Shown here: positions 29,968 through 53,591 of the stretch, in pieces
Position numbering within the stretch: position 1 is the stretch's first letter
Layout: each line of letters begins with the position of its first letter
DNA from: Escherichia coli
GTDB lineage: Bacteria; Pseudomonadota; Gammaproteobacteria; Enterobacterales; Enterobacteriaceae
DNA length: 64,000 nt
Reading direction: 5' to 3' (one strand)
Assembly: GCF_030013595.1 (NCBI RefSeq)
Contig: NZ_CP122771.1
The notes under the pieces: generated by a model
Databases searched by the model: none
What the model saw: only the letters and a program-made list of their open reading frames with translations
What the model was told of the DNA's origin: nothing
Translations under genes and position numbers: made by a program

Positions 29968-30174
29968 ATGAAGTACCTTAACACTACTGATTGTAGCCTC
30001 TTCCTTGCAGAGAGGTCAAAGTTTATGACGAAATATGCCCTTATCGGGTTGCTCGCCGTGTGCGCCACGGTGTTGTGTTTTTCACTGATATTCAGGGAAC
30101 GGTTATGTGAGCTGAATATTTACAGGGGAAATACAGTGGTGCAGGTAACTCTGGCCTACGAAGCACGGAAGTAA
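29968..30174 (+). CDS. SrnB' overlapping leader ORF (mok-like) of the srnB locus
   Basis: ATG 29968 in frame with the toxin; MKYLNTTDCSLFLAERSKF... precedes the toxin Met. Confidence 0.5.
   Translation: MKYLNTTDCSLFLAERSKFMTKYALIGLLAVCATVLCFSLIFRERLCELNIYRGNTVVQVTLAYEARK
30025..30174 (+). CDS. srnB: SrnB, Hok/Gef-family membrane toxin
   Basis: 49-aa peptide MTKYALIGLLAVCATVLCFSLIFRERLCELNIYRGNTVVQVTLAYEARK matches recalled F SrnB/Hok family. Confidence 0.8.
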   Translation: MTKYALIGLLAVCATVLCFSLIFRERLCELNIYRGNTVVQVTLAYEARK

Positions 30175-30457
30175 GCTGCCGGGCGGGGACGGAAGTCCCC
30201 GCTTTCCGGAAGTGTGAGGTATTTCAGGGGCAGACACCCGACATGCCAGAAACAGCCGGTCCCGCCCGGGGCCGGCATCCTGGTTAAGGCATTTCCTGCT
30301 TTTCAGTCATTTCATTATCAAAATCACATTAAACGGTCGTAATCAGACATGATTTGTGCGCCAACACAGATCTTCGTCACAATTCTCAAGTCGCTGATTT
30401 CAAAAAACTGTAGTATCCTCTGCGAAACGATCCCTGTTTGAGTATTGAGGAGGCGAG

Positions 30458-30706
30458 ATGTCGCAGACAGAAAATGCAGTGACTTCCTCATCAGGTACAA
30501 AGCGAGCATACAGAAAAGGTAATCCTCTGACGCTTGCAGAACGTCAGCAGGCATCCCTGGCAAGAAAACGAGCTACACATAAAGAACTCAGAGTGTTCAT
30601 TCCTGCTGCGTTAAAAGCGCAATTGCAGGTGATGTGTGAAGCTGAGGGCGTTACCCAGGCTGAGATGATTGCCGAACTGATAAAGCAGAAGAGTGCTTTT
30701 AGCTAA
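30458..30706 (+). CDS. repA2: CopB (RepA2), transcriptional repressor of repA
   Basis: 82 aa with N-terminus [24 protein letters not shown] as recalled for IncFII CopB. Confidence 0.85.
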
Positions 30707-30949
30707 CTAAAATGTAGCGACATCACATTCTTGCCTGTTTCTGGTGTGCGTGATAGATTGCTGATCGTTTAAGGAATTTTGTGGCTGGCCACGCCGTAAG
30801 GTGGCAGGGAACTGGTTCTGATGTGGATTTACAGGAGCCAGAAAAGCGAAAACCCCGATAATCTTTCTATGTTTGGCGACGAAGAAGATTACCGGGGCCA
30901 TCTAAAAACCGTATAGCCAACAATTCAGCTATGCGGGGAGTATAGTTAT

Positions 30950-31024
30950 ATGCCCGGAAAAGTTCAAGACTTCTTTCTGTGCTCACTCCTTCTGCGCATT
31001 GTAAGTGCAGGATGGTGTGACTGA
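30950..31024 (+). CDS. tap: Tap leader peptide (RepA6) translationally coupled to repA1
   Basis: 24-codon [27 protein letters not shown] whose stop overlaps the repA1 GTG start, as in R1/R100. Confidence 0.55.
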
Positions 31025-31874
31025 TCTTCAACAAACGTATTACCGCCAGGTAAAGAACCCGAATCCGGTGTTCACACCCCGTGAAGGTGCCGGAACACTG
31101 AAGTTCTGCGAAAAACTGATGGAAAAGGCGGTGGGCTTCACCTCCCGTTTTGATTTCGCTATTCATGTGGCGCATGCCCGTTCGAAGGGACTGCGTCGGC
31201 GCATGCCACCGGTGCTGCGTCGACGGGCTATTGATGCACTGCTGCAGGGGCTGTGTTTCCACTATGACCCGCTGGCCAACCGTGTCCAGTGCTCCATCAC
31301 CACGCTGGCCATTGAGTGCGGGCTGGCGACGGAGTCTGCTGCCGGAAAACTCTCTATCACCCGAGCCACCCGCGCCCTGACGTTCCTCGCAGAGCTGGGC
31401 CTGATTACCTACCAGACGGAATATGACCCGCTTATCGGGTGCTACATTCCGACCGACATCACGTTCACACCGGCACTGTTTGCCGCTCTCGATGTGTCTG
31501 AGGTGGCGGTGGCAGCTGCGCGCCGCAGTCGTGTGGAATGGGAAAACAGACAGCGCAAGAAGCAGGGACTGGATGCACTGGGTATGGATGAACTGATAGC
31601 GAAAGCCTGGCGTTTTGTGCGTGAGCGTTTCCGCAGTTACCAGACAGAGCTTAAGTCCCGGGGAATAAAGCGTGCCCGTGCGCGTCGTGATGCGGACAGG
31701 GAACGTCAGGATATTGTCACCCTGGTGAAACGGCAGCTGACGCGCGAAATCGCGGAAGGGCGCTTCACTGCTAATCGTGAGGCAGTAAAACGCGAAGTGG
31801 AGCGTCGTGTGAAGGAGCGCATGATTCTGTCACGTAACCGTAATTACAGCCGGCTGGCCACAGCTTCCCCCTGA
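31017..31874 (+). CDS. repA1: RepA1, IncFII replication initiator (GTG start)
   Basis: 285 aa starting [30 protein letters not shown]; matches recalled R100 RepA1. Confidence 0.9.
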
Positions 31875-32049
31875 AAGTGACTTCTCCTGAATAATCCGGC
31901 CCGCGCCGGAGGCATTCGCACGCCTGAAGCCTGTCAGCGAACAAAAAAGCAGCACTGCATACAAAAAACAATCTCATCATCCACCTTCAGGTGCATCCGG
32001 TTCCCCCTGTTTTTGATGCAAAACACCTCCCACAGACGGGTAATTTTGC

Positions 32050-32058
32050 TTATCCACA
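32050..32058 (+). promoter_or_regulatory. DnaA box (TTATCCACA) in the probable oriR downstream of repA1
   Basis: Perfect consensus 9-mer about 175 bp after the repA1 stop, where the IncFII origin lies. Confidence 0.4.
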
Positions 32059-32786
32059 TTTAACTGCAAGGGACTTCCCCATAAGGTTACAACCGTTCAT
32101 GTCATAAAGCGCCAGCCGTCAGCGTTACAGGGTGCAATGTATCTTTTAAACACCTGTTTATATCTCCTTTAAACTACTTAATTACATTCATTTAAAAAGA
32201 AAACCTATTCACTGCCTGTCCTGTGGACAGACAGATATGCACCTCCCACCGCAAGCGGCGGGCCCCGACCAGAAACTATTTAGTTACAACACTCAAATAC
32301 AACCACCGGAAGAACCCCGGTCCCGCGCAGAACTGAAACCACAAAGCCCCTCCTCATAACTGAAAAGCGAGGCCGCCCCCGCCCAAAGGGCGGGAACAAC
32401 ATCGCTTTTAATTATGAATGTTGTAACTACATTATCATCGCTGCCAGTTCTCTGGCTGGAAGTCCTCAGTACACGCTCGTAAGCGGCCCTCACGGCCCGC
32501 TAACGCGGAGATACGCCCCGACTTCGGGTAAACCCTTGTCGGGACCACTCCGACCGCGCACAGAAGCTCTCTCATGGCTGAAAGCGGGTATGGTCTGGCA
32601 GGGCCGGGGATGGGTAAGGTGAAATCTATCAATCAGTACCGGCTTACGCCGGGCTTCGGCGGTTTTACTCCTGTATCATATGAAACAACAGAGTGCCGCC
32701 TTCCATGCCGCTGATGCGGCATATCCTGGTGACGATATCTGAATCGTTATATACTGTGTATATACGTAGTAATGACGAGGTGATAA

Positions 32787-33056
32787 ATGGCACAGGTTAA
32801 TATGAGTTTAAGAATCGACGCTGAACTGAAGGATGCTTTTATGGCCGCTGCAAAAAGCATGGACCGTAATGGCTCTCAGTTAATCCGGGATTTTATGCGC
32901 CAGACCGTTGAACGGCAGCATAATACCTGGTTCCGTGACCAGGTTGCGGCAGGACGTCAGCAACTCGAGCACGGCGATGTGCTTCCCCATGACATGGTCG
33001 AATCTTCTGCTGCTGCATGGCGGGATGAGATGAGCAGGAAGATTGCCGGTAAATGA
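32787..33056 (+). CDS. Ribbon-helix-helix antitoxin (RelB/ParD-like)
   Basis: 89 aa, MAQVNMSLRIDAELKDAFMAAAKSMDRNGSQLIRDFMRQ is a typical RHH; stop overlaps the downstream start (ATGATG). Confidence 0.7.
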   Translation: MAQVNMSLRIDAELKDAFMAAAKSMDRNGSQLIRDFMRQTVERQHNTWFRDQVAAGRQQLEHGDVLPHDMVESSAAAWRDEMSRKIAGK

Positions 33057-33217
33057 TGGAGATATTTTGGACCATGCTGGCCAGCCAGGACAGGAAGCGC
33101 ATTCGTGAGTACATTGCGGAGCAGAACCTGATGGTCGCCATTGAACTGGACGAACGGATTGGTTATTTCGGACGAACGCACCGGCTTACGCCGGTTTTAC
33201 ATCTGTACTACATGTAA
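33056..33217 (+). pseudogene. Truncated RelE/ParE-like toxin (53 codons)
   Basis: Reading frame MEIFWTMLASQDRKRIREYIAEQNLMVAIELDERIGYFGRTHRLTPVLHLYYM runs into the repeat motif accggcttacgccgg and stops; too short for a functional toxin. Confidence 0.45.
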
Positions 33218-33264
33218 CCTCATACACACATAAATGAGTAACATACTGATTAATATGGTAAATC

Positions 33265-34188
33265 ATGACGATTGAAAGCTTTTTTATTGGCACCCGCCGC
33301 TCTGATAAACGTTACGGGCCTCAGAGCAAGGATATGCAGGTTTCTGAATTCATTTCTCTGATTTCTCCCCAAAATGCCCCTCATAAGGTTGTGTTACCTG
33401 ATTTTACTGGTCTGGCAATTCAGCTTGATGCACAAATCAGGAACCAGTTTCATCAACTGAAAGAGGATGAGCACTTCCTTCGATATCGGCAGTTGTCGGA
33501 AAGGTGGTATCAGGCGGACTCTATTAGTGACAGAAACAACCGCAGTAAGCGTTTTGAGAAGATCATGGATGACTCACTTGATTTTTTGCTTTACAGCCAA
33601 GACGTCATGCCTAACATCAATCCAGATGATCTCCAATGGCATGATTACGAAAAGGCTAGCAGTAAGGGTAAAATGTACTGTGTAGCGCTTCTGTTCCATG
33701 TCATTGCACGGGCTGCATATGAACCCGAATCTGTGGGTAAAGATCCGACACTTCCAGAATATTGCCGGTGGATGAAAAATTGGATAGAGAAAACATTAGG
33801 TCATGATTTTTTAGATAGAATGATGATCTATTGTGCGCTGTTTGCCCCAGCGTATTTTCCCGCGTTACAACGTCTGAGCGGAGAGAAAGAAACGCGTGAT
33901 GTCCATGAATTCCTGGCTGAGCATGTTCGCACTTTAGCTCAAAAAAATTCTTCAGAGGTAAATTATAGAGATCAACGGCAATTCACGTTTGGCTACACCA
34001 TGTTCACGAAGCAACAATTTGAATTTCTGGGCATGATGCGCGATGTCCATTACCGGATTGATTGTATTGAACAGCTCCTTCTGGACCTTATAGAACGTAA
34101 GGTTGTGGATTTCACTGATGCATCTGTTGCAGGCACGTGGATTGAGAAGCAAATTCAGCGGCTTGAATCAAACGACGTAAAGCAGTAA
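33265..34188 (+). CDS. Hypothetical protein (307 aa), orphan
   Basis: Long ORF with ATG start immediately after the truncated toxin; no recognisable family. Confidence 0.5.
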   Translation: MTIESFFIGTRRSDKRYGPQSKDMQVSEFISLISPQNAPHKVVLPDFTGLAIQLDAQIRNQFHQLKEDEHFLRYRQLSERWYQADSISDRNNRSKRFEKIMDDSLDFLLYSQDVMPNINPDDLQWHDYEKASSKGKMYCVALLFHVIARAAYEPESVGKDPTLPEYCRWMKNWIEKTLGHDFLDRMMIYCALFAPAYFPALQRLSGEKETRDVHEFLAEHVRTLAQKNSSEVNYRDQRQFTFGYTMFTKQQFEFLGMMRDVHYRIDCIEQLLLDLIERKVVDFTDASVAGTWIEKQIQRLESNDVKQ

Positions 34189-34807
34189 CCCTCTGAACTG
34201 TAAATTGGGTAGTCAGATTTAATTATTGGCACCTGTTCATAGGTGCCACCTTTCTGAAAGAATGTATCCTAATTTTTCGATATCCAAACTGACCCCTATT
34301 TTAGATGTTTCATTTATCACACCCTAAAGCTGAATATTTATCACAAGCCATTTTTACCGATAAATAACTAAGGCGATCAATGCCAATGGACTTACAATAA
34401 TAAACAGATTCTTTTTTGCTATTCAGGTTCGTAACACGGGGTCTGAAGTCCAATGGAACGAAAACGTACGTTAGTGAAGTAACTGTATGATATATCAAGA
34501 CATAATGGACATAGAAAAACGCCATCAAAACGGTGTCTTTTTAATCGAAAATTGGCACTTAACGGACGGCATTGTCTACTAATCGATTTTTAGACGATAA
34601 TTTTCCTCTTACCGTACATTTTCGTACGGTTGGCCCTCAAACCCCGATTTGAACTCAATCGGATAACCTGAATGCAATACCGCAATGGCGATAATTTAAA
34701 AGCGATAGCCGTTGACGCAAAATCAATCCGTTACGCATCTCTATTGGTTAAATAATGCGCTTAACGTACAAAATTTTCCCATATCCAAACTGACCCCTTA
34801 AAGGACA

Positions 34808-35155
34808 TCAACACGCATTCGGCGTTTTTTCTTGTCCAATTGTGATTTTCGTGAGCTCCGTATCAGTGAAATTTCCCTTTCCTGATTCTGTGTCAAAGTC
34901 ACCAGGTTTGAACCGGTGTACATCCTGCCATATAGAGAAACAGGTGTGGCAGGTGACAGGCAGTTCTCCATCAGCCACCTTTTCGCAGTTTTCAATCAGT
35001 ACCCGTTCCTTATTGTATTGTAAGTTATAACCACTTGTGCAAAGCGTTTCATACCCGTGAGCGCCTGTCACGATATGTGTGGCAATCCGTTCCCTGACTT
35101 TTCCGTTCACTAATAACTGTTCACGTGTGGTGATCGTTCGCATTCTCTTCCTCAT
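34808..35155 (-). CDS. Hypothetical protein (115 aa) with Cys/His pattern
   Basis: Minus-strand ORF convergent with the 307-aa gene; RBS-like ggaaa before ATG; cysteines and histidines suggest possible metal binding. Confidence 0.4.
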   Translation of the reverse strand: MRKRMRTITTREQLLVNGKVRERIATHIVTGAHGYETLCTSGYNLQYNKERVLIENCEKVADGELPVTCHTCFSIWQDVHRFKPGDFDTESGKGNFTDTELTKITIGQEKTPNAC

Positions 35156-35480
35156 CAGCTTTCCTGTAGAAGCCTCCTGACTATAAGGCTCCGGATATCT
35201 TACCCGCTCATTTTGGCTGGAGGTAGTGGTGGCGTCAGAGGATGAATTACTGACATTGTATATGAAGCTTTGAGTTTTTTCTGGATTTCATCAGTGTTTA
35301 TCTTTATTTGTTCTTGTTTGTTCTCTTTTGTGCTGTTGGAGTCGGTTTTTGTCTGTGTTTTTCTTTATTTTTCCATTTGTGGCCGATATCAGGTCTTTAC
35401 CGATACGTTGTTTTAGGTGATAATCGTTTTTGATCTCGTATTTTTCTAAAAAAATCCATTTTATTTATGTGAGGTTCTAG

Positions 35481-36461
35481 ATGCGTATCTTTGTAGACGA
35501 CGGCTCTACCAACATCAAACTGGCCTGGGTTGAAGACGGTGCAGTGAAAACGTTAATTAGTCCGAATAGTTTTAAGCCGGAATGGTCTATGACGCTGCAG
35601 GGACTGACTGATGCCACTGTACCCGCTTCCGCAAACTATGAGATTGATGGAGAAAAATACAGCTTTGATCAATTGAGTCCGGATGCAGTGCGCACCACAG
35701 AAACGCGTTATCAGTACAGCGACGTTAATGTGGTTGCTATTCATCATGCGTTGATGCAGTCAGGTATTGCTCCACAACCTGTTGATATTGTTGTGACTTT
35801 ACCTTTAGGTGAGTATCTGGATGAGAACGATCAGCCAAATCTGGCTAATATCGAACGTAAGAAAAATAATGTCCGGCGAACTGTAACAGTTCAGGGGCGT
35901 GAAAACTTTACCATTCGTAAAGTCAGTGTCTTGCCTGAGTCCGTGCCTGCCGGTTTTGACGTGCTGAAAGATCTGAATGATCTGGAGTCGCTGTTGATTG
36001 TTGATATCGGTGGAACGACCCTTGATATTGCACATGTCCGCAGCAAAATGTCAGGTTTCACAAAAACCTATTGTGACCCCAAGACTGGCGTCTCCATCAT
36101 TACTGAAGCAGTTAAGCATGCGATGGATGTGAATGTGAGTACACGAACCAGTTCTTATTTTGCAGATCGTCTAATCCAGGGCCGGGATGACAATGAATTC
36201 CTGACCCGTTATATCCCGAATGCAGAACAGCGTGAGCGGATCCTGACAGTATTACGTGACCGGGAAAAAAAACTGCAGCATCGTGTGGCGGATTCAGTAG
36301 GACGCTTTGCTGGTTTTACTCATGTTATGGTTGTTGGCGGTGGTGCCAGCCTTGTGGCTGGGGCAGTAAAAAAAGCGACAGGAGTGGGTGATAACCGTTT
36401 CTTTGTCAGTGACAATCCTCAGTTCGATCTGGTGTTGGGAATGATGGCAATGAAGGGATGA
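35481..36461 (+). CDS. stbA: StbA/ParM actin-like partition ATPase
   Basis: 326 aa; MRIFVDDGSTNIKLAW... and DIGGTTLDI motifs match recalled R1 ParM / R100 StbA. Confidence 0.85.
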   Translation: MRIFVDDGSTNIKLAWVEDGAVKTLISPNSFKPEWSMTLQGLTDATVPASANYEIDGEKYSFDQLSPDAVRTTETRYQYSDVNVVAIHHALMQSGIAPQPVDIVVTLPLGEYLDENDQPNLANIERKKNNVRRTVTVQGRENFTIRKVSVLPESVPAGFDVLKDLNDLESLLIVDIGGTTLDIAHVRSKMSGFTKTYCDPKTGVSIITEAVKHAMDVNVSTRTSSYFADRLIQGRDDNEFLTRYIPNAEQRERILTVLRDREKKLQHRVADSVGRFAGFTHVMVVGGGASLVAGAVKKATGVGDNRFFVSDNPQFDLVLGMMAMKG

Positions 36462-36886
36462 GTATGGCTGATAATCGTAAGTGCTCTTTTTATATTTATC
36501 CGGAACGAAATGCAGCTGATCGGGTGGCTGACAGGTTTCTTGAAAAATTGCCTCAGAAAGAACGTGGTCGGGCAATGCGGGCCATGATGTTGTGTGGTGC
36601 TGCATTGATGAAGCAGGATGAACGATTGCCGTTCCTGATAGCTGAATTCCTGACAGACAGCACGTCTATGCAGGATATTCAACGAATTATCAGTAGTACG
36701 CTACCACAACAGGAAAATGGTGAAGTCGTTCGTTTGCTGGAGGCATTTCTGCAGTCTGCTGGTAATAATGCAAAAGCGATCCTGCCTGCGGTTGATTCTG
36801 CTACGCAAGAAATATCTGCTCCAGTCGATCAGAATCTCCTGGAAACAAGAAACAACATTAAGAACTTGTTTCCGGATGATGAATAA
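36458..36886 (+). CDS. stbB: StbB/ParR partition adaptor
   Basis: 142-aa ORF overlapping the stbA stop; position as ParR/StbB. Confidence 0.65.
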   Translation: MSMADNRKCSFYIYPERNAADRVADRFLEKLPQKERGRAMRAMMLCGAALMKQDERLPFLIAEFLTDSTSMQDIQRIISSTLPQQENGEVVRLLEAFLQSAGNNAKAILPAVDSATQEISAPVDQNLLETRNNIKNLFPDDE

Positions 36887-36904
36887 GAACTGAACTCTGT
36901 TAAA

Positions 36905-36928
36905 GGACGCTGTTGCGTCCTTTTTTCT
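36905..36928 (+). terminator. Rho-independent terminator after stbB
   Basis: GGACGC-tgtt-GCGTCC followed by a T-run. Confidence 0.6.
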
Positions 36929-37258
36929 TTTCCGACAAAGGATGTCGCCGGGCTCCTCTTTTTACTGCGCCGGCTGACGCGGCGCGGCAGGAACGCTGCC
37001 TGTGGTCAGTATCCCGCGTCCGGCCGGGCACGGGACGGGCGCTTTTACCGCTCCCGGCTGGCGTCGGTGGCAGTGTACGCCAGCCCGTCGCCCTTTTCTG
37101 ATGAACGCCCTTCAAGCCGCTTTCGCGGCATATCCTCGCCGTCAAACAGACGACGGCTGCGGTATTCCACGGTCGGCCTGACCCGTTATCGGACGCGGTG
37201 AACAGCCCACAGGCCGCGGGGAACGGGCGCCACAGGGGCGCCCTCCCGGTGCTCTCTG
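36924..37258 (+). repeat. Leading-region repeat type A, copy 1 (Frpo/ssi-like)
   Basis: About 335 bp nearly identical to 38244-38567; GC-rich with multiple hairpins, upstream of a leading-region gene. Confidence 0.7.
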
Positions 37259-37286
37259 CTGAAGCAGAAGTGAGAGGAGAATTCCC

Positions 37287-38213
37287 ATGCCAAACTGGTG
37301 CTCAAATCGTATGCATTTTTCTGGTGAACCGGCACAGATTGCTGAGATTAAACGACTGGCCAGCGGTGCAGTCACACCGTTTTATCGCCGCGCCACAAAT
37401 GAAGGTATTCAGCTGTTTCTGGCCGGAAGTGCCGGACTTCTGCAGACCACTGAAGATGTGCAGTTTGAACCGTGCCCCGGAGTGACGGCTGCCGGACGTG
37501 GTGTTGTATCGCCGGAGAATATCGCGTTCACCTGCTGGCTGACACACCTGCAGAACGGTGTGCTACTGGATGAACAAAACTGCCTGATGCTGCATGAACT
37601 CTGGCTGCAGAGTGGTACTGGCCAGCGTCGCTGGGAAGGATTACCGGATGAGGTCAGGGAAACCATCACCGTGCATTTCACCGCCAAAAGAGGTGACTGG
37701 TGTGGCTTCTGGAGTAACGAGGATGTATCGGTGTGGTGGAACCGTCTGTGTGACAATGTACTGCCGGAAAAAACCATGCCGTTTGACCTGCTGACGGTTC
37801 TGCCCACCCGCCTGGATGTTGAAGTGAATGGCTTTAACGGTGGTGTTCTGAATGGTGTTCCTTCTGCGTATCACTGGTATACGGAACAGTATGGCGTGAA
37901 GTGGCCTGTGGGGTATGAGGTGAATATCAGCCGTCAGGGAGAAAACTTCATTCAGGTGGATTTCGACACGCCGTGGTGTCAGCCGGAAAGCAACGTTGTT
38001 GCAGAATTAAGCCGCCGTTTCGGCTGCACGCTGGAGCACTGGTACGCCGAACAGGGCTGCAATTTCTGTGGCTGGCAGTTGTATGAGCGCGGAGAGCTCG
38101 TTGATGTGCTGTGGGGGGAACTGGAATGGTCTTCCCCGACAGATGACGATGAGCTGCCGGAAGTCACCGGACCTGCGTGGATAGTCGACAAGGTGGCGCA
38201 TTATGGCGGATGA
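37287..38213 (+). CDS. Conserved leading-region protein (308 aa, Trp/Cys-rich)
   Basis: RBS gagagga before ATG 37287; first gene after repeat type A copy 1. Confidence 0.6.
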   Translation: MPNWCSNRMHFSGEPAQIAEIKRLASGAVTPFYRRATNEGIQLFLAGSAGLLQTTEDVQFEPCPGVTAAGRGVVSPENIAFTCWLTHLQNGVLLDEQNCLMLHELWLQSGTGQRRWEGLPDEVRETITVHFTAKRGDWCGFWSNEDVSVWWNRLCDNVLPEKTMPFDLLTVLPTRLDVEVNGFNGGVLNGVPSAYHWYTEQYGVKWPVGYEVNISRQGENFIQVDFDTPWCQPESNVVAELSRRFGCTLEHWYAEQGCNFCGWQLYERGELVDVLWGELEWSSPTDDDELPEVTGPAWIVDKVAHYGG

Positions 38214-38227
38214 AGTATGACGGAGAC

Positions 38228-38250
38228 GGGCGGGCAACCGCCCGTTTCTT
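38228..38250 (+). terminator. Terminator-like hairpin after the 308-aa gene
   Basis: GGGCGG-gcaa-CCGCCC followed by a T-run. Confidence 0.5.
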
Positions 38251-38567
38251 TTCCGGTAAAGGATGTCGCCGTGCTCCTCTTTTTACTGCGCCGGCTGACG
38301 CGGCGCGGCATAAACGCTGCCTGTGGTCAGTGTCCCGCGTCCGGCGGGCACGGGACGGACGCTTTTACCGCTCCCGGCTGGCGTCAGTGACAGTGTACGC
38401 CAGCCCGTCGCCCTTTCTGATGAACGCCCTTCAAGCCGCTTTCGCGGCATAGCCTTGCCGTCAAACAGACGACGGCTGCGGTATTCCACGGTCGGCCTGA
38501 CCCGTTACCGGACGCGGTGAACAGCCCACAGGCCGCGGGGAACGGGCACCACAGGGGTGCCCTCCCG
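38244..38567 (+). repeat. Leading-region repeat type A, copy 2 (Frpo/ssi-like)
   Basis: Near-identical to 36924-37258. Confidence 0.7.
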
Positions 38568-38595
38568 GTGCCCTCTGTAAGAGAAGGAGGCTTTT

Positions 38596-39279: not shown

Positions 39280-39501
39280 ATGAACTATGCCGGACACGAA
39301 AAACTTCGCGCCGAAGTGGCGGAGGTGGCCAACACCATGTGTGACCTTCGGGCCAGGCTGAACGATATGGAGCATCGCTGTCGCTTTGATTCCGATGTGC
39401 TTGTTGAACGCCTGACACGCCAGACGCTGTATCGCGCCAATCGCCTGTTCATGGAGGCATATACCGAAATTCTGGAACTGGATTCCTGCTTCAAAGATTG
39501 A
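39280..39501 (+). CDS. Hypothetical small leading-region protein (73 aa)
   Basis: ATG immediately after the methyltransferase stop (TAAATG). Confidence 0.45.
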   Translation: MNYAGHEKLRAEVAEVANTMCDLRARLNDMEHRCRFDSDVLVERLTRQTLYRANRLFMEAYTEILELDSCFKD

Positions 39502-39512
39502 GGAGAGAGAGT

Positions 39513-43072: not shown

Positions 43073-43303
43073 TGTTCTTTAAAAATCAGGATTTATTTCA
43101 GGCTCCGGCAATATGCATTTATTTGTTCTGTCAGTCATCCGGCTGGCAGGTAATGAGAACGCAGGAACAGAAGGAGGAAAACACCGGAGAACGTCAGACG
43201 CAGATATGAAAAAAGCAGGTCAGGGACCTGCTTAATCCACACCGCAGAGACTGCACGAACAGTCTTTACGGTTTCATTAATTAACGTCATAAGAGGCTAA
43301 ATT

Positions 43304-43534
43304 ATGACAGTAAGTATTGTTTCACCTTCCGCAGCGGCTGTAAAGCCCCGCCGTCATCCCCGTTTCAGACGCGAAGACATCCCCGCGCCGGAAATTGACC
43401 CCGTGCTGAAAGCCTTCGGGCGACACATTGCCCGGAGTTTTCACCGGGGGCGTGGTGTACACATCCCCGCCATGAAAAACACGACCTTCGGGCAGGTGCT
43501 CCGCACACTCGAACTGAAACGCGCTTTTAACTGA
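43304..43534 (+). CDS. Hypothetical small basic protein (76 aa)
   Basis: ATG with upstream gaggc; first ORF after repeat B copy 1. Confidence 0.4.
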   Translation: MTVSIVSPSAAAVKPRRHPRFRREDIPAPEIDPVLKAFGRHIARSFHRGRGVHIPAMKNTTFGQVLRTLELKRAFN

Positions 43535-44947: not shown

Positions 44948-44993
44948 GGTATATCCCCCCGGGAAATCCCCGGGGGATGACGGAGATAATGAC

Positions 44994-45557
44994 ATGCACA
45001 GTCAGTTAAGAGAACGTATCCGGCTGATGCGCGCAAGGCTGGATAACGCCGCGCCGGTTGCTGAAATCCGGGCTGAATCTCAGCTTTTTGTGACTCCTGC
45101 CCCGGTCTGTGATCGCCTGGTGACGCTGGCGGAGATCAGCAACCGTGATCACATTCTGGAACCCTCTGCCGGCACCGGGGCCATACTGCGGGCGATTCGG
45201 GATACCGCGCCGGGGGCCATGTGTGATGCGGTGGAAATCAACAGCGGGCTGGTCCGGTATCTGCGGGAAAATTTTAACGGTGTCAGGGTTCAGTGTGGCG
45301 ACTTCATGGAATGGCAGCCGGTGCAGTATTACAGCCGGGTTATCATGAATCCGCCGTTCAGCCACGGGCAGGATATCCGGCATATCCTGCGGGCCTTTTC
45401 CCTGTTGCGTCCGGGTGGCGTGCTGGTCGCCGTCTGTCTCAACGGACCACGCCAGCAGGAGAAGCTGTTGCCGTTTTCTGACGTCCGCGAGGAGCTGCCG
45501 CGCGGCACGTTTGCTTATACCCGTGTTCCGACGATGATTATTCGTCTGCGGGCCTGA
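44994..45557 (+). CDS. Orphan SAM-dependent DNA methyltransferase (EPSAGTGA motif I, then NPPF motif IV)
   Basis: 187 aa with ILEPSAGTGAIL and VIMNPPFSHG; no partner endonuclease. Confidence 0.7.
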   Translation: MHSQLRERIRLMRARLDNAAPVAEIRAESQLFVTPAPVCDRLVTLAEISNRDHILEPSAGTGAILRAIRDTAPGAMCDAVEINSGLVRYLRENFNGVRVQCGDFMEWQPVQYYSRVIMNPPFSHGQDIRHILRAFSLLRPGGVLVAVCLNGPRQQEKLLPFSDVREELPRGTFAYTRVPTMIIRLRA

Positions 45558-45721
45558 AGACGCCGGGCAGGCGGGAGGATAAATGCCTGTCTGTCCGCGC
45601 CGGGAAAAGACCGCGCGCCGGTGGCGCTGAAAGGGGCCGCGCTGACGCGCCGCCCCTTTCATTACGCGGACGTTCTGACGGGGGCTTCTGTCTTTTCAGA
45701 CCTGTCATTTGCCTGTTACTG

Positions 45722-45775
45722 ATGATGTTGTTGTTCCTGCTACTGCTACTGCTACTGCTACTGCTACTGCTACTG
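45722..45775 (+). repeat. Microsatellite (GTT)n followed by (CTGCTA)6 upstream of repeat B copy 2
   Basis: Six perfect tandem CTGCTA units read directly; the equivalent position in copy 1 (42432-42450) carries (GTT)5. Confidence 0.85.
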
Positions 45776-45925
45776 TTCTTCTTTTTTCTGATGCTCTCAT
45801 TACTGTCTGTTTTGTTGTTCTCCTGCTTATGCCTTTTCCGGGCGTCCCCCTGGCGGGGCGGGCTGTCGTGAACGGAGCCAGCGAAGCTGTCTCCGCCCTG
45901 GCGGGCTTCCATCCCTGACGCCAAA

Positions 45926-46373
45926 CCCCCTGGCTTGCAGCGACCGTTCCGGTCGCGCCGCCTCTGTCGCGCCGTGACCTGCGCTCCCGGCATCCCGGCA
46001 AAAGGCCGCCGGGATGTGAGGGGCAACGCCGTTTCGCGCACGCGCTCTTCGTCGTTGCGGCGGGTGCCTGCCCGTTGTTGTATCCGGTGCCCTGCACCCG
46101 TTTAAGCCCCTGTCGCCGGGGGCAAAGACAGCCACAACCGTCTCCGCCAGTCCAGGGGTGAAATGCACATCCCACAAAAGTTTTTGCCCAAAAGCCGGCA
46201 AAAACTTTTGTGGTCTGCCCCCGGACAGTCGTTTCCGGCCGTGGCAGTGATGCCCCTTGCGGCGAAGGTTCTCAAACGGGTGATGGTTAATACCGGAGGG
46301 AACAAACGGCAGGTCCCCGCAAAACGTCAAAACCGCGGCTCCCGAAACTCAACGGGTGATGGGGGCTGAAAAC
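45926..46373 (+). repeat. Leading-region repeat type B, copy 2 (5'-truncated; hairpin at 46174-46212)
   Basis: Aligns with copy 1 from ...ggcttgcagcgaccgttcc onward; hairpin arms carry compensatory changes. Confidence 0.7.
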
Positions 46374-46394
46374 ATCAACAGAAGGAGACACATC

Positions 46395-46925
46395 ATGGCA
46401 GTTCGTGGAATTAACAAGGTCATTCTTGTCGGTCGCCTGGGAAAAGATCCGGAAGTCCGTTACATCCCCAACGGGGGCGCAGTGGCAAACCTGCAGGTGG
46501 CCACGTCAGAAAGCTGGCGTGACAAACAGACGGGGGAGATGCGGGAGCAGACGGAATGGCATCGCGTGGTGTTGTTCGGCAAGCTCGCGGAAGTGGCTGG
46601 TGAATATTTGCGTAAGGGTGCGCAGGTCTACATCGAGGGGCAACTCCGTACCCGTAGCTGGGACGACAACAACGGCGTCACCCGTTACATCACTGAAATC
46701 CTTGTTAAAAACACGGGCACCATGCAGATGCTGGGACGTGCCGCAGGTACTCAGACTCAGCCGGAAGAGGCGCAACAGTTCAGCGGTCAGCCTCAGCCGG
46801 AATCACAGCCGGAACCGAAAAAAGGTGGCGCGAAAACGAAAGGCCGTGGACGTAAGGCCGCGCAGCCGGAGCCTCAGCAGCCGTCTGAACCCGCGTATGA
46901 CTTCGATGACGACATTCCGTTCTAA
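46395..46925 (+). CDS. ssb: Plasmid single-stranded DNA-binding protein
   Basis: [48 protein letters not shown]... OB-fold and acidic C-terminal tail DFDDDIPF. Confidence 0.9.
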
Positions 46926-46953
46926 CGAAAGACAGTGACAACCGCCCCGTCCA

Positions 46954-47214
46954 GTGCGGGGCATCACCGGAGATATGAGGATGAGCGAATATTTCAGAAT
47001 ATTTCAGGGGCTGCCTGACGGCTCCTTTACCCGCGAACAGGCTGAAGCCGTTGCCGCACAGTACCGGAATGTCTTTATCGAGGATGATCAGGGAACGCAT
47101 TTTCGCCTGGTTGTCCGCAATAACAGTGGCCTGGTCTGGCGTACCTGGAATTTTGAGGACGGTGCCGGGTACTGGATGAACCATGTCATCCGGAATTTCG
47201 GCATTCTTAAGTAA
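46954..47214 (+). CDS. Hypothetical small leading-region protein (86 aa)
   Basis: ORF immediately after ssb; internal ATG at 46981 is an alternative start. Confidence 0.45.
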
Positions 47215-47277
47215 GAGAGGTGCCGGACGGGAACGCGTCCGGCAGACATACAACCATCCCGGTCAAAGGAGAAATAT

Positions 47278-49236
47278 ATGTCAGTTACAGAGTCTAAGAC
47301 AAAAACGGAGCGTAAATCCAGCCGTAAACCTGCAAAAACGCAGGAAACAGTCCTGTCTGCCCTGCTGGCGCAGACGGAGGAAGTGAGCGTGCCGCTGGCC
47401 TCACTGATTAAATCACCGCTGAATGTGCGCACGGTGCCGTATTCTGCGGAGTCCGTCAGCGAACTGGCGGACTCCATTAAAGGTGTCGGCCTGTTACAGA
47501 ATCTGGTTGTTCATGCCCTGCCAGGTGACCGTTACGGTGTCGCCGCAGGCGGTCGCCGACTGGCAGCACTCAACATGCTGGCAGAGCGCAACATCCTTCC
47601 GGCTGACTGGCCTGTACGCGTGAAGGTCATTCCGCAGGAGCTGGCGACTGCCGCATCGATGACCGAGAACGGTCAGCGTCGGGATATGCACCCTGCCGAA
47701 CAGATTGCCGGATTCCGCGCAATGGCGCAGGAAGGCAAAACACCTGCACAAATCGGTGATTTGCTGGGCTATTCACCCCGCCACGTTCAGCGAATGCTGA
47801 AACTGGCTGACCTTGCGCCTGTCATCCTCGATGCGCTGGCAGAAGACCGCATCACCACCGAACACTGTCAGGCGCTGGCGCTGGAGAACGACACCGCGCG
47901 TCAGGTGCAGGTGTTTGAAGCCGCCTGTCAGTCGGGATGGGGCGGTAAACCGGAAGTACAGACCATTCGTCGTCTGGTGACCGAAAGTGAAGTGGCGGTG
48001 GCGGGGAACAGTAAATTCCGCTTCGTGGGGGCTGATGCCTTCTCGCCAGACGAACTGCGCACCGATTTGTTCAGCGACGACGAAGGTGGCTATGTGGACT
48101 GCGTGGCGCTCGATGCCGCCCTGCTGGAAAAACTCCAGGCTGTCGCAGAGTTCCTTCGGGAAGCCGAAGGCTGGGAATGGTGCGCCGGACGCATGGAGCC
48201 TGTCGGTGAGTGCCGTGAGGATGCCGGAACATACCGCTGTCTGCCGGAGCCGGAAGCGGTGCTGACGGAGGCGGAAGAAGAACGTCTGAACGAACTGATG
48301 ACGCGTTACGACGCGCCGGAAAACCAGTGTGAGGAATCTGACCTGCTGGAAGCAGAAATGAAGCTGATGCGCTGCATGGCGAAGGTCAGGGCGTGGACGC
48401 CGGAGATGCGTGCCGGAGGTGGAGTGGTGGTGTCCTGGCGTTATGGCAACGTGTGTGTCCAGCGTGGTGTGCAGTTGCGCAGTGAGGATGACGTGGCTGA
48501 CGACGCTGACCGTACGGAACAGGTGCAGGAGAAAGCGTCAGTGGAGGAAATCAGTCTGCCACTGCTGACGAAAATGTCTTCCGAACGCACGCTGGCAGTC
48601 CAGGCAGCACTGATGCAGCAACCGGACAAATCTCTGGCACTGCTGGCATGGACGCTCTGCCTGAATGTGTTTGGCAGCGGAGCGTACAGTAAACCAGCAC
48701 AAATCAGCCTGGAATGTAAACATTATTCGCTGACCAGCGATGCGCCATCGGGGAAGGAAGGTGCCGCATTCATGGCGCTGATGGCAGAAAAAGCCCGTCT
48801 TGCTGCCCTGTTACCGGAGGGATGGTCACGGGACATGACGACATTCCTGTCACTCAGTCAGGAGGTGCTGTTATCCCTGCTCAGTTTCTGCACCGCATGC
48901 AGCCTTAACGGTGTCCAGACCCGTGAGTGTGGTCACACGTCACGCAGTCCGCTTGACACGCTGGAAACCGCCATCGGCTTTCACATGCGAGACTGGTGGC
49001 AGCCGACAAAAGCAAACTTCTTCGGACACCTGAAAAAGCCGCAGATTATCGCAGCCCTGAATGATGCCGGACTGTCCGGTGCCGCACGGGATGCAGAGAA
49101 GATGAAGAAAGGTGATGCGGCTGAACATGCAGAGCACCATATGAAAGACAACCGCTGGGTGCCTGGCTGGATGTGTGCACCACGTCCACAGACGGATACC
49201 ACTGAACGCACCGATAACCTGGCTGATGCCGCCTGA
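47278..49236 (+). CDS. ParB-like nuclease-domain protein (652 aa)
   Basis: RBS aaaggaga before ATG; N-terminal ParB/Srx-like region (LQNLVVHALPGDRYGVAAGGRRLAAL). Confidence 0.75.
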   Translation: MSVTESKTKTERKSSRKPAKTQETVLSALLAQTEEVSVPLASLIKSPLNVRTVPYSAESVSELADSIKGVGLLQNLVVHALPGDRYGVAAGGRRLAALNMLAERNILPADWPVRVKVIPQELATAASMTENGQRRDMHPAEQIAGFRAMAQEGKTPAQIGDLLGYSPRHVQRMLKLADLAPVILDALAEDRITTEHCQALALENDTARQVQVFEAACQSGWGGKPEVQTIRRLVTESEVAVAGNSKFRFVGADAFSPDELRTDLFSDDEGGYVDCVALDAALLEKLQAVAEFLREAEGWEWCAGRMEPVGECREDAGTYRCLPEPEAVLTEAEEERLNELMTRYDAPENQCEESDLLEAEMKLMRCMAKVRAWTPEMRAGGGVVVSWRYGNVCVQRGVQLRSEDDVADDADRTEQVQEKASVEEISLPLLTKMSSERTLAVQAALMQQPDKSLALLAWTLCLNVFGSGAYSKPAQISLECKHYSLTSDAPSGKEGAAFMALMAEKARLAALLPEGWSRDMTTFLSLSQEVLLSLLSFCTACSLNGVQTRECGHTSRSPLDTLETAIGFHMRDWWQPTKANFFGHLKKPQIIAALNDAGLSGAARDAEKMKKGDAAEHAEHHMKDNRWVPGWMCAPRPQTDTTERTDNLADAA

Positions 49237-49290
49237 TGAACAACCACACCGCCCCGCCGGAGACGGGGCGGCAGCAAGGGAGATACCGTG

Positions 49291-49725
49291 ATGAAAACTG
49301 AACTGACCCTGAATGTATTACAGACCATGAGTGCACAGGAATATGAAGATATCCGGGCAGCCGGAAGTGATGAACGTCGTGAGCTGACACACGCCGTGAT
49401 GCGGGAACTGGATGCGCCGGACAACTGGACGATGAACGGCGAGTACGGCAGCGAGTTCGGCGGCTTTTTCCCCGTCCAGGTCCGCTTCACGCCTGCCCAC
49501 GAACGTTTTCACCTGGCGTTATGTTCACCGGGCGATGTCTCTCAGGTCTGGGTGCTGGTTCTGGTGAATGCCGGTGGTGAGCCGTTTGCGGTGGTTCAGG
49601 TGCAGCGGCGGTTTGTACCGGAAGCTGTCAGCCATTCACTGGCACTGGCGGCGTCACTGGATGGGCAGGGGTACAGCGTTAACGACATCATCCATATCCT
49701 GATGGCGGAAGGAGGTCAGGCATGA
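49291..49725 (+). CDS. psiB: PsiB, plasmid SOS-inhibition protein B
   Basis: [36 protein letters not shown]... matches recalled F PsiB (144 aa). Confidence 0.9.
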
Positions 49726-50441
49726 GCGCACGTTCACAGGCACTGGTTCCCCTCAGCGCAGAGCAACAGGCCGCATGGCGGGCGGTGGCGGAGACGGAAA
49801 AACGCCGCCATCAGGGAAACTCGCTGGCGGAATATCCGTATGCGGGGGCGTTTTTCCGCTGTCTGAACGGAAGCCGCAGGATATCGCTGTCTGACCTGCG
49901 ATTTTTCATGCCGTCCCTGACCGCAGAAGAACTGCACGGCAACCGTCTTCAGTGGCTGTATGCCATCGATGTGCTGATTGAAACACAGGGCGAGGTCTGC
50001 CTCCTTCCCCTTCCCGGTGATGCAGCAGAGCGGCTGTTCCCGTCGGTGCGGTTCCGTGTCAGGGAACGCAGTCGCCATAAATCCGCGCTGGTCATGCAGA
50101 AGTACAGCCGCCAGCAGGCACGGGAGGCAGAGCAGAAAGCCCGTGCGTACCAGGCGCTGGTTGCTCAGGCTGAAATCGAACTGGCATTCCATTCGCCGGA
50201 GACGGTCGGAAGCTGGCATGCCCGCTGGAGTGACCGGGTGGCGGAGCATGACCTGGAAACGCTGTTCTGGCAGTGGGGTGAGCGTTTTCCGTCACTGGCC
50301 GGAATGGAACGCTGGCAGTGGCAGGATATGCCGTTCTGGCAGGTCATCGCAGAGGCTGGTATGGCGGCAAGGGTGGTCGGTCATGCTGTTCGTGAGATGG
50401 AGCGGTGGATGGTGCCGAACAAACTCCGGGAGGCAGCGTGA
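49722..50441 (+). CDS. psiA: PsiA
   Basis: 239-aa ORF overlapping the psiB stop; size and position as F PsiA. Confidence 0.9.
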
Positions 50442-50474
50442 TGCGTAAGCGGCTCGCCAGAACCGTATTGATAT

Positions 50475-52046
50475 TTACTGAGAGGTCAGATCAACTTTCC
50501 AGGGCAACAGATCGCGTACCCGGTTTGCCGGCCAATCCTGGATATGCTCAATGACGTAACGCAGCCATTTTTCTGGTTCCACATTGTTCAGACGGCATGT
50601 GCCGATCAGCGAGTACAACACCGCCGCATGTTCGCCACCGCTGTCGGAACCCGCGAAGAGCCAGTTTTTCCGGCCTACGGCCACTCCCCGTAAGGCGTTC
50701 TCTGCGATGTTGTTGTCGATTTCCACCCAGCCATTACTGCAGTACACGTTCAGGGCCTCCCACTGTTTCAGCAGGTATGCGAACGCTTTTGCCGTATCCG
50801 AGTGACGCGACAGTGTTTTCATCTGTTCCTGTATCCAGTCATACAGTGACTGCATCAGTGGAGCCGCTCTGGCTTTTCTTGCTGCCAGACGCTGTTCTGC
50901 TGAACATCCCCGGACTTCTGCCTCGATGACATACAGTTCACCGATACGCTGCAGGGCTTCCGTGGTGATGTCGGTTGGCACTCTTGCATGCACATCGTGG
51001 ATTTTTCTCCGGGCATGGGCCATACACGCGGCTTCCGTTATTCTGCCGGATTCGTATAACGCCCGGTAACCACCGTAAGCATCTGCCTGAAGCACACCGC
51101 TGTAACCGGCCAGGTGATTCTGTGGATGGATACCTTTCCGGTCCGGGCTGTACGCGAACCAGACCGCCGGGGGCATCTGTGAACCGGCGTTACGGTCATC
51201 ACGGACATAGACCCACAGCCGGGCAGTTCTTGTTTTACCACTGCCCGGCTCCTGGACCGGAACGGGGATATCATCCGCATGGACTTTACCGGGCATCAGC
51301 ACATACTGGCGCAGCACGTCATACAGCGGCTCCAGCAGTTCAGCAACGGCACCGGTCCAGCGCCCCAGCGTGGCGCGGCTCAGTTCCACGCCCTGACGAA
51401 GGTATATTTCTGACTGGCGGTATAACGGCAGATGGTCTGCATACTTCCCGGTGACGATATGAGCCAGAAGCCCCGCTCCGGCATAACTGCGTGCAATGGG
51501 TTTTGAAGGTACTGGTGCCTGCACGATATGGTCGCACCGGCAACAGGCCAGTTTCGGACGTTGTGTTTCGATAACCTTAAAAGCGCTGCTGATAAGCTCC
51601 AGTTGCTCTGACACATCACACCCCAGAGGACTGAGGTCACCACCACAGGCCGGGCAGCATTCCTCTTCCGGCCGGATGACCCGGGTTTCACGGGGAAGTG
51701 AGGCCGGTAACGGCTTACGGGCTGAAGACTGGCGCAGGGCGGATGGCAGTACCGGGTCATATTGCTCATCCAGCGTTTCCGCCATTTCTTCCTGAAGTGC
51801 GCTGATTCGCTCCTGGGCTTCCTGTATCTGCCGTTCGGTTTTAGCGCGAAGTTTTTCTGAGCTTTTACCGAACTGCATGCGCTGCAGTTTCGCAACCAGC
51901 GCCTTCAGCCGGTTGATTTCGGAAGCATAAGCCGCCACCCGCTGTGAGAGCAGGCGGTTGTATTTCGCCATCTGGCGGATGGTGTCCTGTTGCGTCTGCA
52001 ACAGTGCCCGCAGGCGGGCATTCTCATGAGCAAGTGAGGTGTCCAT
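50475..52046 (-). CDS. IS66-family transposase (TnpC)
   Basis: 523 aa with N-terminal coiled coil, CxxC...CC zinc-finger region and DDE-type core typical of IS66 TnpC. Confidence 0.9.
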
Positions 52047-52065
52047 ATCCTCACTTTACAACGGG

Positions 52066-52413
52066 TTATATGCGGATGCCAGCGCGTTCCGTTCGTTTCG
52101 GGTGCTTCCAGTCGATGCCTTCGAGAAGCATGGACAACTGAGCCGGAGTAAGGTGAACCTTTCCATCGCGGGTGACCGGCCAGACGAAGCGGCCCCGCTC
52201 CAGGCGTTTGGTGAAGAGGCACAGTCCGTCACTGTCAGCCCACAGCACTTTTATCTGGTCACCCCGGCGTCCGCGGAAGATGAACAGATGCCCGGAGAAC
52301 GGGTCATCCTTCAGGACGTTCTGAACTTTTGAGGCCAGGCCGTTAAAGCCATTTCGCATATCGGTGATACCGGCAACCAGCCAGATACGCGAACCGGCAG
52401 GGAGAGATATCAT
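52066..52413 (-). CDS. IS66-family accessory protein TnpB (Orf2)
   Basis: 115 aa, MISLPAGSRIWLVAGITDMRNGFNGLA... typical IS66 Orf2. Confidence 0.85.
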   Translation of the reverse strand: MISLPAGSRIWLVAGITDMRNGFNGLASKVQNVLKDDPFSGHLFIFRGRRGDQIKVLWADSDGLCLFTKRLERGRFVWPVTRDGKVHLTPAQLSMLLEGIDWKHPKRTERAGIRI

Positions 52414-53063
52414 CAGTGGCTGCTCCCTTTCATTTCGCGGATAAGTGTCTGTAATAACGCCGGTGTCAGTTCACCTTTCAGCCTGAGAGTTCCGGCCGGC
52501 AGAACCAGCTCGCAGCACAGACTGTCTGGCAGTGTATTTATCTGTTCAGGTATCTGCACTGGTGCCGGGATTTTATTATCCGGCTCCGGAGTTAACGTCA
52601 CGGGAAGTAGCGATGTTTCATGTTCGCCGGGCGGTTGCAGGCCACCGTTACGCCAGAGATGCCGCCAGTTAAAGAGCAGGTTATCGTTAATTCCATTCTC
52701 TCGAGCTATTTGTGCGACACAAGCACCGGGTAAAAGAGTTTGCTGAACCAGTCTCCATTTAAACTCCGGTGAAAATCGGTTCCGGCGGGGTTTCTCTGCT
52801 TTCACAGGCTGAGTCACGGTCGGGGCTGAAGGGTATCGCCCCGGGAAAAGAGCCCGGGCCAGTTGCCCGCAGGAATATTCACCGGAAAGAGGCCAGTCAG
52901 TGAATACCTGGTGAAATCGCCTCACCAGAGAAAAAATGGCGGTTTTGCTGACACCGGTCTGCGCAGAAATGCGCGGGTACGACAGTGACTCGTCAAATCT
53001 CAGCTGTAGCACACGCAGGATCAATTCCGGATTGTCTGCCAGTACCGCTTTTCGTGCATTCAT
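52413..53063 (-). CDS. IS66-family accessory protein TnpA (Orf1, HTH)
   Basis: 216-aa ORF overlapping the tnpB start; first gene of the IS66 operon. Confidence 0.75.
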   Translation of the reverse strand: MNARKAVLADNPELILRVLQLRFDESLSYPRISAQTGVSKTAIFSLVRRFHQVFTDWPLSGEYSCGQLARALFPGRYPSAPTVTQPVKAEKPRRNRFSPEFKWRLVQQTLLPGACVAQIARENGINDNLLFNWRHLWRNGGLQPPGEHETSLLPVTLTPEPDNKIPAPVQIPEQINTLPDSLCCELVLPAGTLRLKGELTPALLQTLIREMKGSSH

Positions 53064-53374
53064 CTTAAATGTCCCTTTACTGCGAAAATGGACATTAGTA
53101 TCGGAAACAGGAAAGGGAGGCGAAAGACGGTTTAAATGAGACGGTTACCGTGATGCGGCAACAATCACATGGATTTCCCGTGAACGGTCTGAATGAGCGG
53201 ATTATTTTCAGGGAAAGTGAGTGTGGTCAGCGTGCAGGTATATGGGCTATGATGTGCCCGGCGCTTGAGGCTTTCTGCCTCATGACGTGAAGGTGGTTTG
53301 TTGCCGTGTTGTGTGGCAGAAAGAAGATAGCCCCGTAGTAAGTTAATTTTCATTAACCACCACGAGGCATCCCT

Positions 53375-53587
53375 ATGTCTAGTCCACATCAGGATAGCCT
53401 CTTACCGCGCTTTGCGCAAGGAGAAGAAGGCCATGAAACTACCACGAAGTTCCCTTGTCTGGTGTGTGTTGATCGTGTGTCTCACACTGTTGATATTCAC
53501 TTATCTGACACGAAAATCGCTGTGCGAGATTCGTTACAGAGACGGACACAGGGAGGTGGCGGCTTTCATGGCTTACGAATCCGGTAA
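53375..53587 (+). CDS. mok: Mok (FlmC) leader ORF overlapping hok
   Basis: 70-codon ORF overlapping hok in a different frame, as in hok/sok loci. Confidence 0.5.
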
Positions 53588-53591
53588 GTAG
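53433..53591 (+). CDS. hok: Hok (FlmA) post-segregational killing toxin
   Basis: 52 aa [52 protein letters not shown] matches recalled Hok. Confidence 0.9.

Follow-up and report, generated by a model that had tools for sequence, protein, structure and literature searches.

Two hok-family toxin-antitoxin modules, probably intact and independent, on an F-like plasmid of Escherichia coli

Introduction

The closest described relatives of the loci considered here are hok/mok/sok of plasmid R1 and the srnB/srnC and flmA/flmB/flmC (stm) loci of plasmid F. For R1 hok and F srnB, killing (post-segregational or after rifampicin) and cleavage of the RNA duplex by RNase III are known, and R1 hok/sok is a proven post-segregational killing (PSK) cassette (PMC4147584, PMC1635323). 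The antitoxin Sok is a 64-nt antisense RNA whose 5' tail, 11 nt long and single-stranded, is complementary to the anti-Sok peptide nucleic acid PNA-1 (TATGTCTAGTC), and the hok mRNA loses 39 nt from its 3' end by trimming (PMC1635323). A recent survey describes divergent Hok homologues that reside together on replicons, as well as Hok homologues in leading regions. The present analysis concerns a pair of such loci, one of the srnB type and one of the hok/mok/sok type, in a 64,000-nt stretch of Escherichia coli DNA (contig NZ_CP122771.1, assembly GCF_030013595.1), which is called the window and to which the coordinates refer.

If both modules follow the hok-type mechanism (PMC4147584, PMC9841398, PMC1635323), each would produce a stable toxin mRNA that is locked, while at full length, by pairing between its two ends, tac and fbi. 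In this form the Shine-Dalgarno (SD) sequence of the leader would be held by an upstream box, with ribosomes and antisense RNA both excluded. Slow trimming of the 3' end back to a GC-rich hairpin would release the 5' end; the freed tac would then pair with the upstream box and the SD with a downstream box, and the leader SD and ATG would be exposed together with the loop targeted by the antisense RNA. As long as the cell keeps the plasmid, a constitutive promoter on the opposite strand, within the leader open reading frame (ORF), would supply a small, unstable antisense RNA (Sok or SrnC). This RNA would bind through its single-stranded 5' tail and block translation of the leader and hence of the toxin, and RNase III would then degrade the duplex of antisense RNA and mRNA. 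In segregants that have lost the plasmid, decay would remove the antisense RNA first, the membrane toxin (Hok, 52 aa; SrnB, 49 or 68 aa) would be made and the cell would be killed.

Two Hok-Family Loci on One Plasmid

Both modules are almost certainly intact, independent type I toxin-antitoxin systems of the hok family that act in PSK. This reading is built on the identity of the loci to the studied ones of R1 and F, the intact state of their elements, covariation in the pairing of the mRNA ends, in silico refolding of the srnB mRNA and the predicted orthogonality of the two antisense tails. The two-locus arrangement itself is already known and ordinary: both loci occur at the corresponding sites of plasmid F, and each locus is present on thousands of PLSDB plasmids.

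Judged by its sequence, the window comes from a conjugative plasmid of the F-like, IncFII type. Its closest DNA matches are IncFII-type E. coli plasmids of 60-70 kb, and an Rfam scan of the window finds the CopA RNA at 30844-30932 and FinP with the traJ leader at 59.8 kb. The srnB-type locus (locus A) stands beside the IncFII replicon, 284 bp upstream of the copB/repA2 ORF (30458-30706). The hok/mok/sok locus (locus B) shares the strand of psiB and psiA and lies past these genes and ahead of traM/traJ, a position that belongs to the leading region. The toxin ORFs, assigned to Pfam HOK_GEF (PF01848, cutoff 22 bits), and their leader ORFs are as follows.

29968..30174, plus strand: 68-aa 'SrnB' leader-plus-toxin ORF, the mok analogue, in the toxin frame, with SD GAGG at 29959-29962
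30025..30174, plus strand: SrnB toxin ORF, 49 aa, HOK_GEF 35.9 bits (30025-30171)
53375..53587, plus strand: mok leader ORF, 70 aa, Pfam DUF5431 140 bits (53375-53584), overlapping hok out of frame
53433..53591, plus strand: hok toxin ORF, 52 aa, HOK_GEF 76.5 bits (53433-53588)

The Hok and SrnB toxins are 39% identical. The Rfam model RF01794 'sok' (gathering score 59 bits) matches both loci, with 98.2 bits at 29879-30035 and 88.9 bits at 53259-53435, and each match is full-length to the model and lies on the toxin strand (+), which marks a long structured leader of the hok-mRNA type. The model has no further match anywhere in the window even at E<=0.1, and no match on the minus strand at E<=1. 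Six-frame tblastn of the whole window with Hok, SrnB and Mok, together with a two-sequence hidden Markov model, finds no third or degenerate Hok-like ORF.

A preliminary description of this DNA had proposed two hok-family toxin loci, one of the srnB type near the replicon and a hok/mok locus in the leading region. The HOK_GEF domains and the RF01794 matches above gathering score at both loci bear this out, as do the neighbours, copB/repA2 and CopA at the one and psiB-psiA and traM/traJ at the other. The ends it gave are exact gene boundaries, since the start codon of the 68-aa SrnB ORF begins at 29968 and the hok stop codon ends at 53591. It had named disrupted toxin frames or absent antisense promoters or terminators as signs against the loci; neither toxin frame is interrupted, and both antisense genes have a promoter and a hairpin. 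Its statement that both toxins have overlapping leader ORFs is right for mok, which is read in another frame from hok, and wrong for srnB, whose leader is an in-frame N-terminal extension of the toxin. Here, as in F, the leader ATG precedes the toxin start by 57 nt and shares its frame, so that the 68-aa ORF consists of leader plus toxin. RefSeq, both for F and for NZ_CP122686.1, an identical plasmid, annotates the 150-nt ORF 30025-30174 as 'Hok/Gef family protein'.

Comparison with the R1 and F Loci

The comparison with R1 uses the nucleotide numbering of an R1 mutational study (PMC9841398), with the +1 of the hok mRNA at 53260. All of the positions named in that study (25/25) match the window at 53260-53657, including tac G4/C5/T6, anti-SD A70-C74, mok SD G105/A106, mok start T117/G118, hok start G176, hok stop T330/G332 and 3' stem G345/C358; no difference is seen at the checked positions, to which the comparison is limited. 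The stretch 53149-53905, which spans the hok/sok transcription unit, is 100% identical to other plasmids. The surroundings differ from those in R1, since here an IS66-family element lies directly upstream and a group II intron ~250 bp downstream. The elements of the hok transcript are placed as follows.

53224..53253, plus strand: hok mRNA promoter, TGGTCA-18 nt-TATGAT (promoter scan), its -10 ending 7 nt before +1
53260..53657, plus strand: full-length hok mRNA, 398 nt by R1 numbering (R1 positions, fold)
53260-53266, plus strand: tac of the hok mRNA, complementary to fbi
~53329-53334, plus strand: mok anti-SD (ucb), by R1 numbering
53364-53367, plus strand: mok SD GAGG, by R1 numbering
53601-53618, plus strand: hok 3' stem-loop, containing R1 G345/C358; the truncated hok mRNA ends at ~53620
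53649-53655, plus strand: fbi of the hok mRNA, complementary to tac

The full-length hok mRNA was reportedly given as 398 nt by Franch and Gerdes in 1996, a length that fits 361 + 39 - 2 with fbi at the 3' end.

The F srnB/srnC locus (NC_002483.1 2681-3201) likewise stands just upstream of repA2/copB, at the FII/FIC replicon, and shares the 68-aa in-frame leader-plus-toxin ORF. It is ~99% identical to the window from the -10 of the srnB promoter to past fbi (from 29851 to beyond 30280). The mRNAs are separated by four substitutions: two in the region of SrnC and its target (29941, 29964), a synonymous one, and one that gives the toxin its H32Y change. The -35 region of the window, upstream of this -10, is unrelated to F. 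The F flmA/flmB/flmC locus occupies a position equal to that of locus B, after psiB/psiA in the leading region, and is ~92% identical overall to the hok locus of the window. The two are near-identical outside the antisense gene, and their differences cluster at 53322-53386, which is the Sok/FlmB gene and its target. Because the divergence from flm is confined to this block, the window has the R1 (sok) specificity and not that of F (flmB).

Toxin mRNAs: End Pairing and Refolding

Three elements of the srnB transcript complete the comparison.

29845..29872, plus strand: srnB mRNA promoter, TAGTCA-16 nt-TATTAT with a TG extended -10 (promoter scan)
29879..30239, plus strand: putative full-length srnB mRNA, 361 nt (Rfam start, end pairing, fold)
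30183..30202, plus strand: GC-rich hairpin GCGGGGAC-GGAA-GUCCCCGC (sequence, fold), homologous in position to the R1 hok 3' stem-loop

The -10 region of the srnB promoter is kept in F and in most other aligned srnB homologues, and it finishes 7 nt ahead of the putative +1 at 29879, where the RF01794 alignment also begins. The SD and ATG of the srnB leader are placed homologously to those of mok. By analogy with R1, the hairpin at 30183-30202 is the expected stop for 3' exonucleolytic trimming and would form the 3' terminus of the srnB mRNA in its truncated, active form.

The ends of both mRNAs can pair. In srnB the 5' tac GGGUGUCUG (29879-29887) is fully complementary to the 3' fbi CAGACACCC (30231-30239) over 9 bp, and in hok 53260-53266 is fully complementary to 53649-53655 over 7 bp. 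Minimum free energy (MFE) structures close the mRNA ends in both cases, with z = -8.3 for hok (53260-53657) and z = -6.6 for srnB, and such an end complement arises by chance in 0.9% of shuffled sequences for hok and in 0.07% for the 9-mer of srnB. The pairing is kept where the letters change. In pSTEC1025_1 the outermost G-C pair of the srnB tac/fbi helix has become A-U by compensatory change, and in pEC244_2 a C to U change leaves a wobble pair. Between hok and srnB, aligned in the Rfam register, three end pairs differ on both sides with pairing retained (U-A/C-G, U-A/C-G and C-G/U-A).

The switch from the locked to the active form is reproduced for srnB by plain thermodynamic folding. In the predicted fold of the full-length srnB mRNA the 5' end pairs with fbi and the leader SD (29959-29962) with 29933-29936; in that of the truncated mRNA, ending at ~30205, the 5' end pairs with 29930-29936 and the leader SD with 29997-30000. 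The predicted probability of being unpaired rises on truncation from 0.09 to 0.74 for the leader AUG and from 0.08 to 0.46 for the target of the SrnC tail.

The srnB leader is polymorphic among plasmids. It is in the toxin frame, giving the 68-aa ORF, in the window, F, pSTEC1025_1 and pEC244_2. A 1-nt deletion after codon 3 in pZ1322HEC0010-2 and pBSI052-KPC2 turns it into an upstream ORF of 19 codons that ends as ATGA on the toxin start, and in pCFSAN004178P_02 the leader is an upstream ORF of 13 codons. In a spread sample of tblastn matches (30/2945 plasmid matches) the query start falls at residue 1 in ~43% and at residues 4-6 in ~33%, a rough split of leader frames that uses the query start only, since the toxin frame stays open upstream and tblastn coverage cannot separate the frames. 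This polymorphism fits the view that translation of the leader matters and the leader peptide does not. Decayed copies also occur: a 2-nt deletion in pLAU-OXA2 and pB16EC1124-1 (NZ_CP045279.1, CP088724.1) cuts the srnB toxin to 44 aa, and in pB16EC1124-1 (CP088724.1) an IS26 stands in place of the srnB promoter and the 5' part of the leader, with the srnC promoter still kept.

Antisense RNAs Sok and SrnC

The antisense genes lie within the leader regions on the opposite strand.

53391..53419, minus strand: sok promoter, TTGCGC (53419-53414)-17 nt-TATCCT (53396-53391), read from the sequence
53321..53384, minus strand: Sok antisense RNA, 64 nt, with an 11-nt 5' tail GACUAGACAUA followed by a stem-loop
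29990..30019, minus strand: srnC promoter, TTGACC-18 nt-TACAAT, matching the consensus at 10/12
29922..29983, minus strand: predicted SrnC antisense RNA, ~62 nt, +/-3 nt at each end, with a 14-nt single-stranded 5' tail, a stem-loop and a U-rich end

The PNA-1 sequence TATGTCTAGTC is found once in the window, at 53374-53384, and this single site together with the 64-nt length places Sok at 53384 to 53321 on the minus strand. The 64-mer folds into the tail and one long stem-loop (-26.5 kcal/mol, z = -6.5). A search of the literature with the Sok sequence string gave an unrelated synthetic-biology paper as its sole match. The sok promoter stands 7 nt upstream of this literature-anchored 5' end, is kept in F flm except for one spacer base and is homologous to the srnC promoter, AAGAGGCTA being common to both. 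The promoter scanner passed over it because its 8/12 match to the consensus is under the threshold. The srnC hexamers are kept in 9/9 aligned srnB homologues, decayed copies included (one has TTGACA).

For SrnC the 5' end was set 7 nt past the -10, as in Sok, and the 3' end at the U-run aligned with the Sok 3' end. The predicted RNA folds with -21.2 kcal/mol (z = -3.1), and the target of its tail, 29971-29987, is the most variable block across srnB homologues.

The preliminary description had expected the antisense RNAs on the opposite strand near 53340-53405 and 29935-30000 and had held that they could not be delimited precisely from sequence. Its strand was correct and its ranges overlap those found here, 53321-53384 and ~29922-29983, from which they are shifted by 13-21 nt. 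Delimitation proved feasible with the published PNA for Sok and, approximately, by analogy for SrnC. The Rfam search that it recommended does return matches at both loci, on the toxin strand only, and leaves the antisense RNAs without limits. The consensus of RF01794 covers the mRNA from its 5' end (GGGUGCUUGAG...) as far as the toxin AUG, and thus a match certifies homology of the leader and not an antisense transcript or its strand.

The 5' tails of the two antisense RNAs, GACUAGACAUA in Sok and UGUUAAGGUACUUC in SrnC, are unrelated. The longest word shared by the two antisense genes has 7 nt. The calculated cognate tail-target duplexes reach -15.5 kcal/mol for Sok and -19.8 kcal/mol for SrnC, against -8.2 and -7.6 kcal/mol for the non-cognate ones. 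Each tail is thus predicted to be specific for its own target, with no cross-protection, and this predicted orthogonality implies that the two modules would be controlled independently.

Alternative Interpretations

Several points weigh against two intact and independent modules. Transcription, processing, RNase III cleavage and killing in this plasmid are carried over by analogy from the literature, and the ends of SrnC are likewise modelled on those of Sok. The SrnB toxin has H32Y relative to F, an allele that is also 100% identical in ~40 plasmid records. A gap of 70-75 bp separates the IS66-family element, upstream, from the hok -35, and the element could alter the promoter context. The MFE structure of the truncated hok mRNA lacks the published tac/ucb pairing; the RNA solved experimentally for R1 has this very sequence, and the discrepancy is therefore ascribed to the limits of thermodynamic folding. 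A simple terminator scan finds no canonical terminator for Sok or SrnC, and the sok promoter matches only 8/12 of the consensus; both points hold equally for the proven R1 sequence, which is identical. Since this is the sequence of an experimentally proven locus, what the scanners missed, the sok promoter and the antisense terminators alike, is not counted as absence.

The points on H32Y and the neighbouring insertions also enter the proposal that one or both loci are decayed relics, hitchhiking on an F-like backbone after loss of killing, as are many chromosomal hok loci and some plasmid srnB loci. Damaged srnB copies do exist in the close relatives pLAU-OXA2 and pB16EC1124-1, ~13% of the spread sample of plasmid srnB matches are C-terminally shortened, and the hok locus of the window is flanked by two mobile-element insertions. 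However, none of those lesions is present here: both toxin ORFs are full length, and no damage is seen in the promoters, tac/fbi, SD, leader ATG or 3' hairpins. The hok locus equals R1 at all 25 checked functional positions, and the insertions at 53147/8 and ~53906 fall outside the hok/sok transcription unit. Decay is therefore very unlikely. The proposal that Sok and SrnC regulate each other's toxin mRNAs, so that the two loci form one partially redundant system, draws on the homology of the antisense genes, which have a common stem-loop core (GUUAAUG and GGGG...CUUC motifs) and a common promoter architecture. Against it, their 5' tails are unrelated, the longest shared word has 7 nt, the non-cognate duplexes are 7-12 kcal/mol weaker, and the five chromosomal Sok RNAs of MG1655 fail to repress R1 hok (PMC9841398). 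Such cross-regulation appears extremely improbable.

Two further proposals accept that both modules are functional and assign them different tasks. In one, the modules are non-redundant, hok/sok serving mainly in early establishment after conjugative entry or in phage exclusion and srnB/srnC in replicon-linked PSK. The leading-region site of hok/sok, its strand shared with psiB/psiA, and the independent control expected from tails predicted to be orthogonal would agree with this division, but the sequence gives nothing that distinguishes such a role, and R1 hok/sok is a proven PSK cassette. An IS66-family element also lies between psiA and hok, so read-through from leading-region promoters into hok is unlikely. 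On balance a division of this kind is unlikely. A related and more speculative view holds that the co-resident modules are functionally specialised, in that srnB could yield a 68-aa isoform beside the 49-aa toxin and the leading-region hok/sok could act at establishment or against phage; this seems distinctly unlikely. The 1-nt deletion that makes the srnB leader a 19-codon upstream ORF occurs in about one third of the related plasmids. The preferred reading remains that of two intact hok-family modules, each acting in PSK under the control of its own antisense RNA.

Flanking Elements and Other Antisense RNAs

Compared with NZ_CP122686.1, a plasmid that is near-identical elsewhere, the window has two insertions, one on either side of the hok locus. 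The IS66-family element (~2.7 kb, ~50445-53148), which is absent from NZ_CP122686.1, begins 3-4 bp past the psiA stop, has the ends GTAAGCGGCTC and GTAACCGTCTC with an 8-bp target duplication CGTGATGC, and contains three ORFs, all on the minus strand (50475-52046, 52066-52413 and 52413-53063). The psiA gene is intact in the window (49722-50441, 239 aa) and is annotated as frameshifted in NZ_CP122686.1 (L012 2670-3432). The group II intron (~2.3 kb, ~53906-56236, minus strand) lies ~250 bp downstream of the hok mRNA end and carries a reverse transcriptase/maturase ORF at 53986-55653, with Rfam matches at 53905-53981 and 56054-56203. The insertion falls in what is a small hypothetical ORF of NZ_CP122686.1, and 14 nt are identical at the two junctions.

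Rfam also places four other antisense RNAs on the minus strand of the window, at 43210-43309 (AS-pc01), 27172-27355 (AS-pc02), 23129-23205 (AS-traI) and 13680-13765 (AS-traG), which were first described on pHK01. AS-pc01 lies within 29968-53591 but has no relation to the hok family, and the strand opposite it contains no Hok-like ORF.

Annotation and Biological Meaning

Public annotation of identical sequence (L001 2517-2705; L012 3401-3827) has no sok or srnC RNA feature. A minus-strand ORF (74 aa/62 aa; window 53165-53389) is named 'protein sok' or 'hypothetical protein', the former label being attached to a spurious minus-strand ORF in one deposited record. The mok gene is flagged as a partial pseudogene, and Hok is given as 41 aa from an internal start. 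The main value of the present analysis lies in the correction of such annotation, as standard pipelines leave Sok and SrnC unannotated, and the antitoxin RNA would be misplaced in both strand and extent by annotation taken straight from RF01794. The antisense coordinates, together with modules that are intact and probably orthogonal, are useful for predicting plasmid stability, for curing and for anti-Sok strategies.

Biologically, the two modules are the expected maintenance equipment of an F-like plasmid. If it were true that the long SrnB isoform or the polymorphism of the leader frame alters the strength or timing of killing, this would add a new layer of tuning to a classic system.

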